Source: a virus
Taxonomy: Duplodnaviria; Heunggongvirae; Uroviricota; Caudoviricetes
Direction: 5' to 3' (one strand)
DNA length: 5,512 nt
Virus record (IMG/VR): IMGVR_UViG_2706794670_000011
In this document: positions 7 through 5,512 of the stretch, one piece after another
Layout of the letters: each line of letters starts with the position of its first letter
Position numbering within the stretch: position 1 is the stretch's first letter
Made by a program: the position numbers and the translations under genes
The notes under the pieces: model-generated
Told to the model about the DNA's origin: nothing
Seen by the model: the letters and a program-made list of their open reading frames with translations, nothing else
The model's database searches: none

Positions 7-384
7 AGTAACGTTGGGTTTTTCTGCTCATTATTAGCTCCTTCTGATGCCATTCTATTTCAGGAAGGAGTGTCCGTTAAACTCAGGCTACCTCAATTTG
101 CGCTGGGAAGTGGTGCGCAAGTTGCGTCTAGTGGCGATATTTATGGTTCAGTGTGGGAAAACAACTGGTTAAGCACATGGCTGCATAATCATGTCGTTCG
201 GGATATTCGTCTTGGCAGCATTGAATATAAAAACGTATGGCGCGACTACGGCTTTGGCGATGCGTCAGGTTATGTTTTAACAGCCGCAATTAACAGCAAT
301 GCGGATGATATTGTCGACACTGTTGCCAGAAGGCCAATTCAGAAATTGATTGGGGGAATATGGTACAACGTGGGGAGTGTTTAA
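7..384 (+). CDS. Tail fibre protein, C-terminal segment (stf-like); 5' part lies upstream of the window or is truncated
   Basis: Open frame from 7 to TAA at 382-384, directly followed by a tfa gene (TAAGATG junction). Its last ~60 aa align with the C-terminal end encoded on the minus strand at 1478-1660 (VRDIRLGS...[17 protein letters not shown] vs VRDVRLGT...[17 protein letters not shown]). An in-frame TAG sits at 4-6. Confidence 0.6.
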
Positions 385-385
385 G

Positions 386-913
386 ATGATGCACCTGAAA
401 AATATTAAGGCCGGGAATCCGAAAACACCGGAACAATACCAGCTAACTAAAAAAGCGGGCGTGGTATGGCTCTTTTGCGAAGATGGCAAAAACTGGTATG
501 AGGAACAAAAGAATTTTCAGCCAGACACCATAAAAATTGCTTACGATGAGAACAACATCATCGTTGCTGTCAGTAAAGACGTTTCAACTATTAATCCTGA
601 AGGGCTAAGCATAGTTGAAGTTCCTGATATTACGGCAAATCGTCACGCAGACAATAACGGAAAATGGATGTTTCTGGATGGTAAAGTAGTAAAGAGGGAA
701 TATACAGAACAGGAACTGCAACAACAGGCCGAATCACAAAAGGCCGCATTGCTTTCCGAAGCTGAATCAGTCATCCAGCCGCTGGAACGAGCTGTCAGGC
801 TGAATATGGCAACAGACGAGGAACGCACACGACTGGAAGCATGGGAACGCTACAGTGTTCTGGTCAGCCGTGTGGATACGGCAAATCCTGAATGGCCACA
901 AAAGCCTGAATAA
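386..913 (+). CDS. Tail fibre assembly protein (Tfa family chaperone)
   Basis: ATG at 386 ([14 protein letters not shown]...) one base after the stf stop, with GGGGAG 8 nt upstream. N-terminus and length match the Tfa family and are homologous to the convergent copy at 942-1475 ([14 protein letters not shown]...). C-terminus ([22 protein letters not shown]) is homologous to the tfa remnants at 2698-2781 and 3597-3830. The ORF track begins at 350, but 386 is the more likely start. Confidence 0.85.
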
Positions 914-941: not shown

Positions 942-1475
942 TCATTCTGGTTGTTCGGGAAACGTTACTGGCAGGCTGGAGGTGTCTGTGGATTCAACCT
1001 TCTGCGCATAGAGCATCCACTCGGTTAATTTTTGTTTATTCTCATCGGAAATGATGCCCAGCTGTAGCTGAGAGTCCCACAGCTGGGTTTTATCCCTGAC
1101 GAGCTGCAGCAGGCTCTGCTTTTCATTTTCCGCTTGTTGCCTTTGCTCTTCCTCGGTATAAGTTCGCTTTATCACCGCACCATCTTTGAACATCCAGTTG
1201 CCCGAAATATCAGCCCGGCGATTTGCTGTAATATCAGGCAACTCAACGACACTTAAACCTTCTGGATTAATTGCTGATACATCCTTGTCTATAGCAATAA
1301 TTATTCCCTCAACTGTGTAAGCCAGTTTTATTGTATCCTCCTGAAAGTTTTTTAATTCCTCATGCCAATTTTTTCCATCTTCGGACCATAACCAGATAAC
1401 ATCAAAATTCTTTGTTAGCTGGTATTGTTCAACGGTTTTTGGATTACCTGCGACAATGTTTTTTAAATGCTGCAT
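942..1475 (-). CDS. Tail fibre assembly protein (Tfa family), alternative copy
   Basis: 177-aa ORF starting [37 protein letters not shown], homologous along its length to the plus-strand Tfa at 386-913. Its ATG sits 2 nt after the stop of the upstream 49-aa stf' C-terminal ORF (TAATCATG). Confidence 0.85.
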
Positions 1476-2400: not shown

Positions 2401-2454
2401 TGGCGGTTTCTGGCCTGCATGGCATGATTTGTGCTTTTGGACGGGAGATTCAGC

Positions 2455-2697
2455 GTGCTGATTGGCTATGTAAGGGTATCAACAAATGACCAGAATACAG
2501 ACCTGCAACGAAACGCTCTTGTTTGTGCAGGATATGAACAAATATTTGAAGATAAATTAAGCGGAACAAGGACAGGCCGACCTGGATTAAAACGTGCTTT
2601 AAAGCGCCTTCAAAAAGGTGACGCACTGGTTGTCTGAAAACTGGACTGACTGGGGCACTGTATGCGGCATCTTGTCGTGCTGGTGGTGGAAGCCTAG
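2455..2697 (+). pseudogene. pin: Serine DNA invertase (Pin/Hin/Gin family), disrupted: N-terminal ~80 codons with three in-frame stops, fused to a tfa 3' fragment
   Basis: GTG start at 2455 with GGAG 7 nt upstream. Translation MLIGYVRVSTNDQNTDLQRNALVCAGYEQIFEDKLSGTRTGRPGLKRALKRLQKGDALVV*KLD*LGHCMRHLVVLVVEA* carries the serine-recombinase N-terminal catalytic motif (YVRVST) and the family WKLDRLGR motif with W and R replaced by TGA (2635-2637, 2647-2649). The C-terminal two-thirds, including the HTH domain, is absent. Confidence 0.8.
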
Positions 2698-2835: not shown

Positions 2836-3504
2836 CTATTTTTTCCCTGAAGCGGAAAACATTACTACAGTACCTTGAACCCTGGTTTTAACATTCTCGA
2901 AATGCTCTGAGAGTATATGTGTTAAGCCTTCTTCGGAATCTTTTGTGTTTGAAAAGATGCCTTTCTGATTGTAAATGCGCATCAGTTTTTGACCGAAGCT
3001 ATTGTGCACAACTCCATCGCCAAGAATTGTGGCTCCGTATAGAGTTCCATCGTCAGTTAAGGCCTGCGCCGCATTGCGTATTACACAGCTTTTTGTAGAT
3101 ATATTTCCAGGCAGGCAGTGAAGAAGGTAAAACATGGAAATGGAATCAAATTGACCATGTAACGCCGCGGGATAAGGTTCAAAAACATCATGGCTAATTT
3201 TATGTTTAATTTTTGATTCCCCAGCCCTTGTAGATGCCGCGTTCAGGCTAGCTTCGTTCAAATCCATTAAAGATATCAGACTACTCTCAGGTACGTGAGT
3301 AAGGTAAAACCCAGTTCCAACACCAATATCCAGATGGTTGTTACCTAAATGTTCCAGAAAGTGTGGAAGAAGGTGTTCCTTTGTAGGACATCCCCATGCA
3401 AGCCGATTTGATACTCCCAAAACCCACCAGTCATAAAGCTTTAGGGTAAGTGGTGTGTAAATTTTAGCCCCATCATCTGTGTTTGTTTTCATTGATTTCA
3501 CCAT
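2836..3504 (-). CDS. Class I SAM-dependent methyltransferase (Rossmann fold), substrate unknown; probable prophage cargo (moron) gene
   Basis: 222-aa ORF (218 aa from the second ATG at 3492, which has GGTGA 5 nt upstream). Motif I LDIGVGTGFY (GxGxG SAM-binding loop), an acidic residue at the end of the next strand (LISLMDLNE), a later FDSISMFYLLHCLP segment and ALTDDGTLY. No DPPY/NPPY or PC-ENV motifs, so it is not an obvious DNA methyltransferase. Confidence 0.75.
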   Translation of the reverse strand: MVKSMKTNTDDGAKIYTPLTLKLYDWWVLGVSNRLAWGCPTKEHLLPHFLEHLGNNHLDIGVGTGFYLTHVPESSLISLMDLNEASLNAASTRAGESKIKHKISHDVFEPYPAALHGQFDSISMFYLLHCLPGNISTKSCVIRNAAQALTDDGTLYGATILGDGVVHNSFGQKLMRIYNQKGIFSNTKDSEEGLTHILSEHFENVKTRVQGTVVMFSASGKK

Positions 3505-3533: not shown

Positions 3534-3596
3534 TTATGGCGATGAATTACAAGGGGTTAAATGCTGCCGCAGCATAGCGATATTGAAATAGCCTAG

Positions 3597-3830
3597 TATG
3601 CTTCGATACAGCAGGAGCCGAATGGCTGGAAGACCGTCACCACACAGTTCTACATCCAGGAATTTAGTGAGTATATTGCGCCACTGCAGGATGCTGTAGA
3701 TCTGGAAATCGCAACGGAGGAAGAAAGATCGTTGCTGGAGGCATGGAATAAATATCGGGTATTGTTGAATCGTGTTGATACATCAACTGCACCTGATATT
3801 GAGTGGCCTGCAAATCCTGTCAGGGAGTAA
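3597..3830 (+). pseudogene. Tail fibre assembly protein C-terminal remnant (~77 codons, no start codon)
   Basis: Frame open from 3597 (stop at 3594-3596) to TAA at 3828-3830. Translation ...[57 protein letters not shown] is homologous to the C-terminal third of Tfa at 386-913. There is no ATG and no N-terminal Tfa domain. Confidence 0.7.
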
Positions 3831-3880
3831 TCATTGGGATTATGCCGCAGACACGTCGTATGCAGGAACGTGCTGCGGTT
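3747..3880 (+). repeat. Direct repeat copy 2 (tfa 3' end plus downstream hairpin)
   Basis: Partner of 2698-2830. Hairpin at 3845-3878 (CCGCAGACACGT...ACGTGCTGCGG) has a 1-nt bulge relative to copy 1. Confidence 0.85.
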
Positions 3881-4240: not shown

Positions 4241-4833
4241 ATTAAAACCGCATCAACCTTTCCACCAATTGTTCTTTACGGGCAACGATCCACCCATGTT
4301 GCTCCAGATAAAATTTAAACCGTTCCAGAGTGCATACCATCGCATCGGCGGGGACTTTTTCTGTGAACTCGACCTGANNNNNNNNNNNNNNNNNNNNNNN
4401 NNNNNNNNNNNNNNNNNNNNNNNNNNNNNNNNNNNNNNNNNNNNNNNNNNNNNNNNNNNNNNNNNNNNNNNNNNNNNNNNNNNNNNNNNNNNNNNNNNNN
4501 NNNNNNNNNNNNNNNNNNNNNNNNNNNNNNNNNNNNNNNNNNNNNNNNNNNNNNNNNNNNNNNNNNNNNNNNNNNNNNNNNNNNNNNNNNNNNNNNNNNN
4601 NNNNNNNNNNNNNNNNNNNNNNNNNNNNNNNNNNNNNNNNNNNNNNNNNNNNNNNNNNNCCGAAAAGTTGGCTGATGTAAATTCGGGAGAGCAGTCGAGT
4701 GTGTCAATCTTAGCTAAAACGTGTTTATGTTGTTTATCGAAGTAGTCGGCAACAGCTTGAGAGGTGGTAACCAGGCGACCATCTTTGAAAAAGACTTTTG
4801 GTGACTCGTTAGAAAAAGTTATAGCTGTATTCA
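4241..4833 (-). CDS. Phage regulatory protein, Rha family (N-terminal Rha domain visible; centre masked; C-terminal part in a different frame)
   Basis: ATG at 4833 (minus) with GGAG 9 nt upstream. N-terminus MNTAITFSNESPKVFFKDGRLVTTSQAVADYFDKQHKHVLAKIDTL matches the Rha-domain pattern (...TTS..VA..F.K.H..VL..I..L). After the N-run the only protein-like minus frame is ...QVEFTEKVPADAMVCTLERFKFYLEQHGWIVARKEQLVERLMRF*, ending at 4241-4243. Confidence 0.6.
4378..4659. other. Masked or unknown sequence (run of 282 N) inside the rha locus
   Basis: Continuous N run seen directly. Confidence 1.
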
Positions 4834-5409
4834 TATGTGATGACTCCAATTAATTGGATGATCACCACCTCTGACGCCAATCAGGGAGGTGGTGAGACGT
4901 ACAGGGTTGGCGTAACCGGTCATCACAAAACCCGGCGCGGATTTCTCCGCCCCTGCACGCCCCACCATAATGCGAATGTGGCAATGCTTAACGCAAAAAA
5001 AACCGCAAACGCGGCTATGCGTTGTGATGTTATCCGAGACGCCAATCCCGACAACCGATTTTGCGGTTGTGTGAGGAATATAGCCCCGGAGAACAAAAAC
5101 TGTCAACGGGCAAAAAAATTTCCGTTATCAGGAATGTATAAAATTAAAGCGATCGAGCAAAAAATCCTTTCTGCAAAACTAAAAAAGATTTCAATAAAAT
5201 CAGGCAGTTAAAAACACGGAAAACGGTATAAAAAAGCGCCTCAAAATCCTGTTTTTTCTTTCAGATACAATGTCTTATTGCATTTTTTAAAACATGTCAG
5301 TGTGGTACATGGATATCGATACCATCGCCAATTATAAACTGGGCGGTGCACAGCAACATGATAGCGTACGCCTCGATCCGTGGGTGTTTATGTTCTCAGC
5401 AGGATATCG

Positions 5410-5512
5410 GGTAATGACTCCAACTTATTGATAGTGTTTTATGTTCAGATAATGCCCGATGACTTTGTCATGCAGCTCCACCGATTTTGAGAACGACAGC
5501 GACTTCCGTCCC
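5410..5512 (-). mobile_element. IS1 insertion sequence, right end (partial; continues beyond the window)
   Basis: GGTAATGACTCCAACTTATTGATAGTGTTTTATGTTCAGATAATGCCCGATGACTTTGTCATGCAGCTCC... matches, from memory, the reverse complement of the IS1 right terminus, including the ~23-bp terminal inverted repeat at 5410-5432. Confidence 0.9.
5425..5512 (-). CDS. insB: IS1 transposase InsB, C-terminal end (partial)
   Basis: Minus-strand translation ...GRKSLSFSKSVELHDKVIGHYLNIKHYQ* with stop at 5425-5427, the characteristic InsB C-terminus. Confidence 0.85.
   Translation of the reverse strand, partial: GRKSLSFSKSVELHDKVIGHYLNIKHYQ

Follow-up and report, generated by a model that had tools for sequence, protein, structure and literature searches.

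Features of the region upstream of rha

The window considered here is the whole 5,512-nucleotide stretch of Caudoviricetes DNA in IMG/VR record IMGVR_UViG_2706794670_000011, and our subject is the region of about 440 bp (4850-5293) that separates the minus-strand gene rha from a fragment of the host gene ompW near the right end of the window. An earlier note, made from the sequence and its open reading frames (ORFs), had described this region as a single A-rich, ORF-free unit with nested inverted repeats, and had suggested that it could be an operator/promoter region for rha, a structured 5' leader or a small RNA (sRNA) locus. Two unrelated, already known features make up the region. Positions 4831-5106 of the minus strand are very likely an IsrK-C4 RNA switch that gates translation of rha, a gene of the antirepressor type, and positions 5107-5290 the P arm of the attachment site of the same ompW-integrated lambdoid prophage (Table 1). 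The single unit of about 440 bp is thus not upheld, its A-rich right half being the attachment-site arm that adjoins the ompW fragment, and the description as A-rich suits 5107-5293 (42% A) but not 4850-5106 (28% A).

The Rfam covariance search that the earlier note had proposed as a check was decisive. Both isrK and C4 are matched above their gathering scores, over the full length of each model, in tandem, and on the strand of rha, so that the left 260 bp of the region hold two Rfam-recognised sRNA genes, as the third suggestion had it. The module is real, probably functional, and of a known type. A structured 5' leader is also present, since the leader of rha is structured on the rha strand. 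The operator/promoter suggestion is half right: a sigma-70 promoter exists, but the repeats are co-varying RNA-RNA pairing elements and not DNA operators.

The promoter, P-isrK, has a predicted transcription start near 5070, the first base of isrK. Its -35 hexamer and a CCGGGGCTATATTCC stretch match the sequence upstream of isrK in the Salmonella prophage Gifsy-1, where deletion of the isrK promoter abolishes transcription (PMC4825925). The match itself is computed, and the homology with the Gifsy-1 promoter suggests that the promoter at 5106-5077 is active. An UP-element in the A/T run upstream of the -35 hexamer was considered and rejected; the run is out of register with the consensus and shows no conservation in other loci.

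All parts of an IsrK RNA are present, namely three hairpins, of which the last is a Rho-independent terminator, and a sigma-70 promoter of its own, and the helices co-vary. C4 consists of a 17-bp closing stem around two hairpins, and its RNAfold minimum-energy fold, at -47.4 kcal/mol, is the Rfam consensus. The a' element of C4 is complementary both to a1, upstream in IsrK, and to a2, downstream in the rha leader, and the b' element is likewise complementary to b1 and b2. The nested repeats described in the earlier note correspond to the recognition elements of C4, to the target copies of these elements and to the C4 closing stem, of which CACCACCUC is the 3' arm.

The nested repeats are real, with CACCACCTC at 4863-4871 (one base from the 4864-4872 given before) and GAGGTGGTG at 4886-4894. 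The full arms, TCACCACCTC (4862-4871) and GAGGTGGTGA (4886-4895), are 10 nt long and 100% complementary; the plus strand has ACGCCAA twice, at 4874-4880 and 5039-5045, and TTGGCGT at 4907-4913. A second pair described earlier also exists, at other coordinates: AACCGCAAA is at 5001-5009, not 4993-5001, and TTTGCGGTT at 5060-5068, not 5058-5066. Across 4850-5293 there are three perfect 9-mer inverted-repeat seeds no more than 120 nt apart, against 0.32 in dinucleotide shuffles, roughly 10 times the shuffle mean, and three or more were reached in 27 of 1000 shuffles; the inverted repeats therefore exceed chance. As an anti-terminator the AACCGCAAA/TTTGCGGTT pairing was rejected. It is not conserved in 15 other loci, where own-locus helices average 5.06 nt against 4.43 nt for cross-locus ones, and we treat it as lineage-specific or due to chance.

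Table 1. Coordinates of the features at and beside the rha upstream region, in window positions
Feature	Position	Strand	Details
Sigma-70 promoter P-isrK	5077-5106	minus	TTGACA, 18-nt spacer, TATATT; 11/12 consensus matches
IsrK-type sRNA	4996-5070	minus	Rfam RF01394, 72.2 bits (threshold 50), E 1.5e-14, model positions 1-77 of 77
IsrK hairpin 1	5070-5051	minus	
IsrK hairpin 2	5050-5035	minus	a1 UUGGCGU (5045-5039) in loop
b1 CAUCACAA	5029-5022	minus	in IsrK linker
IsrK intrinsic terminator (predicted)	5016-5001 + U-run	minus	forms isrK 3' end
C4-type antisense RNA	4885-4972	minus	Rfam RF01695, 75.9 bits (threshold 45), E 4.2e-14, model positions 1-87 of 87
b' UUGUGAUGAC	4928-4919	minus	loop of second C4 hairpin; absent from the list in the earlier note
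a' ACGCCAA	4913-4907	minus	single-stranded, C4 junction
a2 target UUGGCGU	4874-4880	minus	complementary to C4 a'
45-codon ORF, positional homologue of Gifsy-1 orf45	4831-4968	minus	AUG in C4 5' arm (closing stem)
Leader hairpin over rha ribosome-binding region	4836-4871	minus	fold prediction
b2 GUCAUCACA	4844-4836	minus	fills gap between rha SD and AUG, ends 1 nt before AUG
rha (Rha-family regulator), regulated gene	4253-4834	minus	partly masked by N
A-rich P arm of attR	5107-5290		42% A; adjoins ompW duplication
Leftover host ompW 3' end (attR core + B')	5291-5409	plus	~97% identical to K-12-derived strains; Pfam OmpW, 156-194 of 195
IS1 end	5411-5512		100% identity to IS1 copies in >5000 plasmids; inserted in last ompW-fragment codon

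Compensatory changes across phage loci

A blastn search against phage genomes returned 285-288 records. Fourteen diverse loci, fetched by DNA similarity and including Stx phages, phiV10, Hafnia yong2, Salmonella SW-37 and 118970_sal3, mEp460, a P2-like Citrobacter phage and 2H10, were compared with the window, together with Gifsy-1 and P1. In all 14 fetched loci and in Gifsy-1, isrK is followed about 25 nt later by C4, and the ATG of the downstream gene lies 45-60 nt past C4. Wherever that gene is annotated (12 of these 15 loci) it is called an antirepressor/Ant, a Bro-N protein or a Rha-type regulator.

Comparative alignment for compensatory changes, which the earlier note had also proposed, was the second decisive check, and the pairings co-vary across the phages. 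In a 15-sequence alignment that does not include Gifsy-1, the internal helices are 96.6% paired and 17 pairs have changed on both sides, whereas controls in which the partners were slid reach 38-45%. In C4, all three helices are fully paired in each of the 15 loci, and 10 of their pairs have changed on both sides. For a1/a' and b1/b' taken together, 97.6% of the alignment cells are paired and 14 of 15 pairs have changed on both sides, giving a covariation score of 0.741; shuffles give 0.189 and slid controls no more than 0.184. The five core pairs of a'/a2 are 94.7% paired in 15 loci, and all five have changed on both sides.

The a' element and its target read ACGCCAA/UUGGCGU here, GUGCAAA/UUUGCAC in PhiR12_2, UUUCCAC/GUGGAAA in mEp460 and GUAGCAA/UUGCUAC in Stx2a_JNE122398, and in each of these examples a1, a' and a2 change together. 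The b'/b2 pairing could not be read in the same way from the MAFFT alignment, on which only 59% of it is paired, the variable leader being out of register, and it was tested without an alignment instead, each b' loop being set against its own leader and those of the other loci. Helices between b' and the ribosome-binding region average 9.8 nt within a locus and 6.5 nt across loci. The b2 element ends 0-16 nt before the gene ATG and usually overlaps the Shine-Dalgarno sequence (SD).

Could the inverted repeats be DNA operators instead, palindromic protein sites that control the rha promoter? Perfect 10-nt arms near the start of rha would suit such a role, and protein control of promoters of this kind does exist, for in P1 the C1 operator (Oc4) overlaps the c4 promoter. 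However, the only good promoter is 170-240 nt upstream of the repeats, the repeats themselves fall within the transcribed leader, and their arms coincide exactly with Rfam helices and target sites. Their sequences also change from phage to phage with complementarity kept, including the three-way changes in a1, a' and a2. Variation in the a and b sequences with retention of complementarity points to RNA-RNA recognition rather than DNA operators, which we regard as extremely improbable here.

In the scheme set out below, the a and b sequences would act as an immunity-specificity code that differs between phages. The a-type UUGGCGU is common to Gifsy-1, VT2-Sakai, phi296 and phiV10, among others; of the 16 loci compared, the window alone has the b-type UUGUGAUGAC. 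The three-way covariation of the a and b elements offers a clean picture of how the specificity of antirepressor immunity diversifies.

The rha leader

The start of rha is just downstream of the module, as the earlier note had it, with the AUG at 4834-4832 and an SD, GGAG, at 4848-4845. The AUG is 51 nt past C4 on the same strand, a position at which rha could be co-transcribed with the module. The SD sits within the palindrome UCCAAUUAAUUGGA and is fully paired in the predicted leader fold, as are all 12 positions from -15 to -4; in the other loci, 6-12 of the 12 positions of the ribosome-binding region are likewise paired. A GAGGUGGUGA segment at 4871-4862 repeats the sequence of the 5' arm of the C4 stem, and could pair instead with the C4 3' arm at 4895-4886. 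The N-terminus of the rha product matches Pfam Phage_pRha and TIGR02681, and a 99.5%-identical locus annotates it as a Rha family transcriptional regulator.

Reading frames through the module

The 45-codon ORF begins at the AUG at 4968 and ends in a UGA (4833-4831) that overlaps the rha AUG in the sequence AUGA (4834-4831). In Gifsy-1, orf45 is translated and its translation is required for that of the downstream gene anrP, and its nucleotide sequence is conserved while the peptide sequence is variable (PMC4825925). A ribosome-transit ORF of 45 codons is very probably present at the window locus also. The statement in the earlier note that no convincing coding frame exists here is therefore right as regards a protein, but not as regards an ORF that ribosomes cross. 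In the 15-sequence alignment, the C4 AUG and the ATG of the gene are separated by a multiple of three nucleotides in 11 loci, the remainder is 2 in four loci, and it is never 1; the bias may reflect selection on ribosome transit, or shared ancestry. The ORF is exactly 45 codons long in both the window and Gifsy-1, although its middle is read in different frames.

The region is not free of ORFs either. A 91-aa ORF (4831-5106, minus), whose last 45 codons are the orf45 counterpart, matches Pfam Phage_ASH (PF10554) at 53.8 bits against a cut-off of 26, over residues 9-83. This raises the possibility that a real 91-aa Ash family protein is encoded here, that the conservation is at the protein level and that the RNA matches are incidental. 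The NCBI annotation pipeline PGAP indeed places an 'ash family protein', WP_001296031.1, at the same position in the 99.5%-identical locus of E. coli 14EC017, and several PHROG 'transcriptional regulator' families match the ORF. The frame from the C4 AUG runs open into the downstream gene in 8 of 15 loci, and the C-terminal 45 codons correspond to an ORF, orf45, that is translated in Gifsy-1.

The details of the 91-aa ORF fit a protein poorly. Its TTG start is the -35 hexamer of the promoter, which puts the first ~12 codons upstream of the transcription start, it passes through the intrinsic terminator of IsrK, and it has no NCBIfam match. Among the homologues, block spacings differ by non-multiples of three (hairpin B takes 18, 19, 20 or 22 nt), the distance from isrK to the AUG, 101-114 nt, falls in all three residues mod 3, and in four loci the ORF is cut short at 14-35 codons. 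Depending on the locus, one and the same conserved sequence reads GYANPVRLTT, RLRQPCTVHH or VTPTLYVSPP, and base changes keep pairing, not codons, in line with the conserved nucleotides and variable peptide reported by the Gifsy-1 authors (PMC4825925). No conserved reading frame or peptide for the Phage_ASH ORF was found among the homologues in 15 loci. We consider an Ash protein very unlikely at this position. The span of the Phage_ASH match (5082-4858) coincides with IsrK, C4 and a2. Annotation pipelines either give the RNA module the name 'ash family protein' or absorb it into long ORFs labelled 'transcriptional regulator'; the comparison of frames argues that the 'ash' label is in large part a by-product of the conserved RNA.

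On the plus strand, a 124-aa ORF (4837-5211) was rejected as a gene; it has no Pfam, PHROG or NCBIfam match. In SfV/mEp460-like phages (loci L006, L007, L011, L013 and L014, and L009:1282-1965) the isrK-C4 module lies in frame inside a long coding sequence (CDS), as in mEp460 gp41 (L011:1132-2283). These CDSs are labelled 'transcriptional regulator', 'peptidase' or 'Ash family protein', their frame stays open upstream of the C4 AUG for ~465 nt and, at three of the loci, extends into the Rha-type gene. The isrK-C4 segment is also internal to PHROG regulator families of 176-324 aa. The long CDS over isrK-C4 may be an annotation artefact or a case of true dual coding.

Relation to Gifsy-1, P1 and P4

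An 'IsrK-C4 immunity system' common to P4 (seqA and CI RNA), P1, P7, N15 and lambdoid prophages has been described by Barquist et al. (PMC3632133). There is little discovery value in the module itself: both RNAs score above curated Rfam thresholds, and experiments in P1 and Gifsy-1 have already worked out the architecture.

The closest system is isrK-orf45-anrP-isrJ of Salmonella Gifsy-1 (Hershko-Shalev et al. 2016, PMC4825925). The two loci have in common a homologous promoter core (TTGACA ... CCGGGGCTATATTCC), an IsrK with the same three hairpins and terminator, and a C4-type RNA ~25 nt downstream, which in Gifsy-1 scores 69 bits for Rfam C4 and occupies the position of orf45/STnc1160. In both, a 45-codon ORF starts from the same AUUAUGGUGGGGCGU in the C4 5' arm and ends in an AUGA overlap with the downstream regulator, the a-type elements are UUGGCGU/ACGCCAA, and the downstream ribosome-binding site lies in a local hairpin. 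Unlike Gifsy-1, in which the downstream gene encodes the Ant-like AnrP, the window has a Rha-family gene, and the two differ in the b' loop, in the b1 and b2 sequences and in the frame of the middle of the 45-codon ORF. In Gifsy-1 isrJ follows, whereas there is none in the unmasked part of the window, and the Gifsy-1 module lies by a Q-like antiterminator in the nin region, whereas that of the window is at the far right end of the prophage, by attR.

In Gifsy-1, the long isrK-orf45-anrP RNA is translationally silent until the short IsrK, acting in trans, pairs with the orf45 (C4) segment and opens the orf45 start, after which anrP is translated by coupling; experiments have shown that Gifsy-1 IsrK binds Hfq and activates the long transcript in trans (PMC4825925). 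IsrK and STnc1160 are strongly transcribed in Gifsy-1 lysogens (PMC7067206).

The anatomy of the P1 locus was taken from the curated GenBank annotation, which gives the promoters P51a and P51b, a1, b1, a 77-nt c4 RNA, a2, b2 over the icd ribosome-binding site, icd, and ant1/ant2; a2 and b2 are annotated as 'repression of icd ant translation'. The immI region of P1/P7 shares with the window the order promoter, a1, b1, C4, a2, b2, ribosome-binding site and antirepressor, the position of a' in the junction and of b' in the loop of the second hairpin, the lengths of the elements (7 nt for a and 8-9 nt for b) and the sequence AUUAUGGUGGGGCGUG in the C4 5' arm. However, b2 of P1 lies over the ribosome-binding site of icd, a separate ORF with which ant is coupled, whereas in the window b2 abuts the rha AUG directly and the sole coupling ORF is one that overlaps with C4. 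Two promoters and the C1 operator are present in P1, whereas no operator-like element was identified in the window, and the P1 leader scores only 35 bits for isrK, and the ORF from its C4 AUG stops after 14 codons. The window locus could be viewed as one that works like immI but is not the P1 operon, having neither an icd-like ORF nor a C1 operator.

The seqA and CI RNAs of satellite phage P4 are structural homologues of IsrK and C4 (PMC3632133, PMC4825925). In P4, and as proposed for the window, the antisense RNA is processed and pairs with complementary sites on either side of its own position in one transcript; unlike in an antirepressor system, where a ribosome-binding site is blocked, CI acts through premature transcription termination of replication genes.

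Proposed working of the switch

How might such a module control rha? Transcription would begin near 5070 from the promoter at 5106-5077, most transcripts would end at the intrinsic terminator (5016-5001 and the following U-run) as an IsrK of ~75 nt, and some would read through into C4 and rha; these three steps are modelled on Gifsy-1. RNase P matures P1/P7 c4 and P4 CI into stable RNAs of ~77-90 nt. By analogy with P1, P7 and P4, an 88-nt C4 (4972-4885) would be cut from the read-through RNA, its 5' end by RNase P. The a' and b' elements of C4 would then pair with a2 and b2, the rha SD being also held in the local hairpin, and by default no Rha would be made. The a'/a2 and b'/b2 complementarity and its covariation are observed; repression of rha by C4 is what P1 immI would predict.

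IsrK, which carries a1 and b1 as decoys, would titrate or remodel C4. Free IsrK would pair with the C4/orf45 segment of the long RNA and open the start of the 45-codon ORF, and ribosomes crossing that ORF would melt the rha hairpin and re-initiate at the AUGA, so that Rha is made. The ORF and its overlap with rha are seen in the sequence, and the activation and translational coupling are carried over from the Gifsy-1 experiments.

Several points weigh against this interpretation. The combined scheme is an inference that joins two models, that of P1, in which C4 represses, and that of Gifsy-1, in which IsrK activates through orf45, and these are not known to have been reconciled experimentally in one system. 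The minimum-energy fold of the isolated IsrK is not the consensus (-20.5) but an alternative (-24.0), which uses a 9-bp pairing of 5068-5060 with 5009-5001, that is, of hairpin 1 with the 3' half of the terminator. The Rfam model of the decoy segment, RF03163 (c4-a1b1), scores 43.8 bits at 5083-5031, below its gathering score of 46.7, although a1 and b1 are present and co-vary. The 15 loci are related, so that the shuffle controls overstate the significance of the covariation and the slid controls are the fairer ones. The duplex energy of b' with the rha ribosome-binding region is -13.9 kcal/mol, against -11.1 +/- 2.2 for shuffled targets, of which 60 of 500 are as good; the corresponding count for a' with this region is 126 of 500. 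The only single-element duplex that stands out is that of a' with IsrK, equalled by 7 of 500 shuffled targets. With single-sequence duplex energies so unremarkable, the support comes from covariation across phages and not from this one sequence. The switch may also be idle, since the prophage in the window is decayed (IS1, pseudogenes, masked stretches), and expression here is a prediction.

A stronger form of this last point is that the module, though its sequence is intact, has fallen out of use and is an inert relic. The IS1 at 5411, the truncated pin-like gene, the tail-fibre-assembly remnants and the masked stretches are all signs of decay. However, a 611-bp stretch of the locus is 99.5% identical to its copy in a lambdoid prophage of E. 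coli 14EC017, which keeps its integrase, excisionase, repressor and lysis genes and a full set of head and tail genes, although it too has insertions, of IS3 and IS66. The stretch is common, at least 80% of the 611 bp being present, at up to 99.5% identity, in 455 of 5426 complete E. coli genomes. All helices, target sites, promoter, terminator and AUGA overlap are intact in the window. A relic is accordingly unlikely in our judgement, and none of the three rivals, Ash protein, DNA operators or inert relic, explains the three-way compensatory changes.

A wider role can be imagined for the IsrK-C4 pair, which might act in trans as an RNA 'immunity code' that cross-regulates the antirepressors of co-resident or superinfecting phages and satellites, with its own read-through tuned by the lineage-specific 9-bp pairing of the alternative IsrK fold. 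We give this no more than an outside chance, and prefer a switch that gates the translation of rha.

The attachment-site arm

The right half of the region abuts the ompW duplication, and this, together with comparison with the PPompW prophages and with E. coli 14EC017, identifies 5107-5290 as the P arm of attR. A block identical in attL and attR occupies 5291-5328, and the crossover is placed inside it. The PPompW lambdoid prophages (LC567822 and relatives; bioRxiv 10.1101/2020.11.04.367953) are also integrated in the 3' end of ompW, in which LC567822 annotates a 121-bp 'duplication due to insertion'. The right ends of PPompW phages share 87.6% identity with 5171-5409, a stretch made up of the arm from 5171 to 5290 and the ompW fragment. 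The ~54-kb prophage of E. coli 14EC017 ends on the right in the same rha-'ash'-ompW' junction, and its integrase and excisionase genes adjoin a reconstituted ompW at the other end.

The likeness to PPompW extends to the proximal ~120 bp of the P arm and to a conserved CTGCAAAAC element. The arm sequence distal to about 5170, by contrast, is unrelated between the window and PPompW, and the right end of PPompW_132418 carries nleG effector cargo instead of isrK-C4-rha. The single exact CTGCAAAAC in the window arm, at 5171-5179, is a candidate integrase arm-type site, a single 9-mer being weak evidence. By int, in the P' arm, there are three tandem copies of CTCTGCAAAAC in both E. coli 14EC017 and PPompW_132418, and these are likely to be integrase arm-type sites. 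The triplets lie between the ompW stop and the integrase gene (L018:48080-48118, which is the 14EC017 attL, and L017:212-255), and in 14EC017 they are followed by a hairpin terminator (CTGGTCATCAAATGACCAG and a T-run). A AATCAGGCAGTTA sequence at 5197-5209 resembles the IHF consensus and may be an IHF-like site; PPompW has AATCAATCAGTTA at the same place.

The recurring AAAATCCT and A-tract motifs to which the earlier note drew attention lie in this arm. AAAATCCT does occur twice (5161-5168 and 5243-5250), but repeated 8-mers in 5107-5293 are at chance level, with four observed against 3.34 expected, a count reached in 414 of 1000 shuffles, and AAAATCCT is not kept in the related PPompW arm. 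We therefore dropped AAAATCCT, the repeated 8-mers and the A-tracts as a signal. An attachment-site arm accounts better than a regulatory RNA does for A-rich sequence at the end of a prophage.

Other features of the window

Elsewhere in the window, Rfam matches to IS009 (110.8 bits, threshold 117, and 46.4 bits) and to CssrB (32.6 bits) were found at 3584-3787, 2659-2738 and 2765-2827. They lie at or beside two copies of a ~130-nt repeat (about 2700-2830 and 3750-3880), and the repeat copies look like remnants of tail-fibre-assembly C-termini. Convergent tail-fibre-assembly genes at 350-913 (plus strand) and 942-1475 (minus strand) are near a truncated pin-like invertase ORF (2431-2637, plus strand), an arrangement that looks like the remnant of an invertible tail-fibre host-range segment. 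Between the tail-fibre remnants, an intact 222-aa ORF (2836-3504, minus strand), the counterpart of a class I S-adenosylmethionine (SAM)-dependent methyltransferase annotated in the related E. coli prophage, constitutes prophage cargo.

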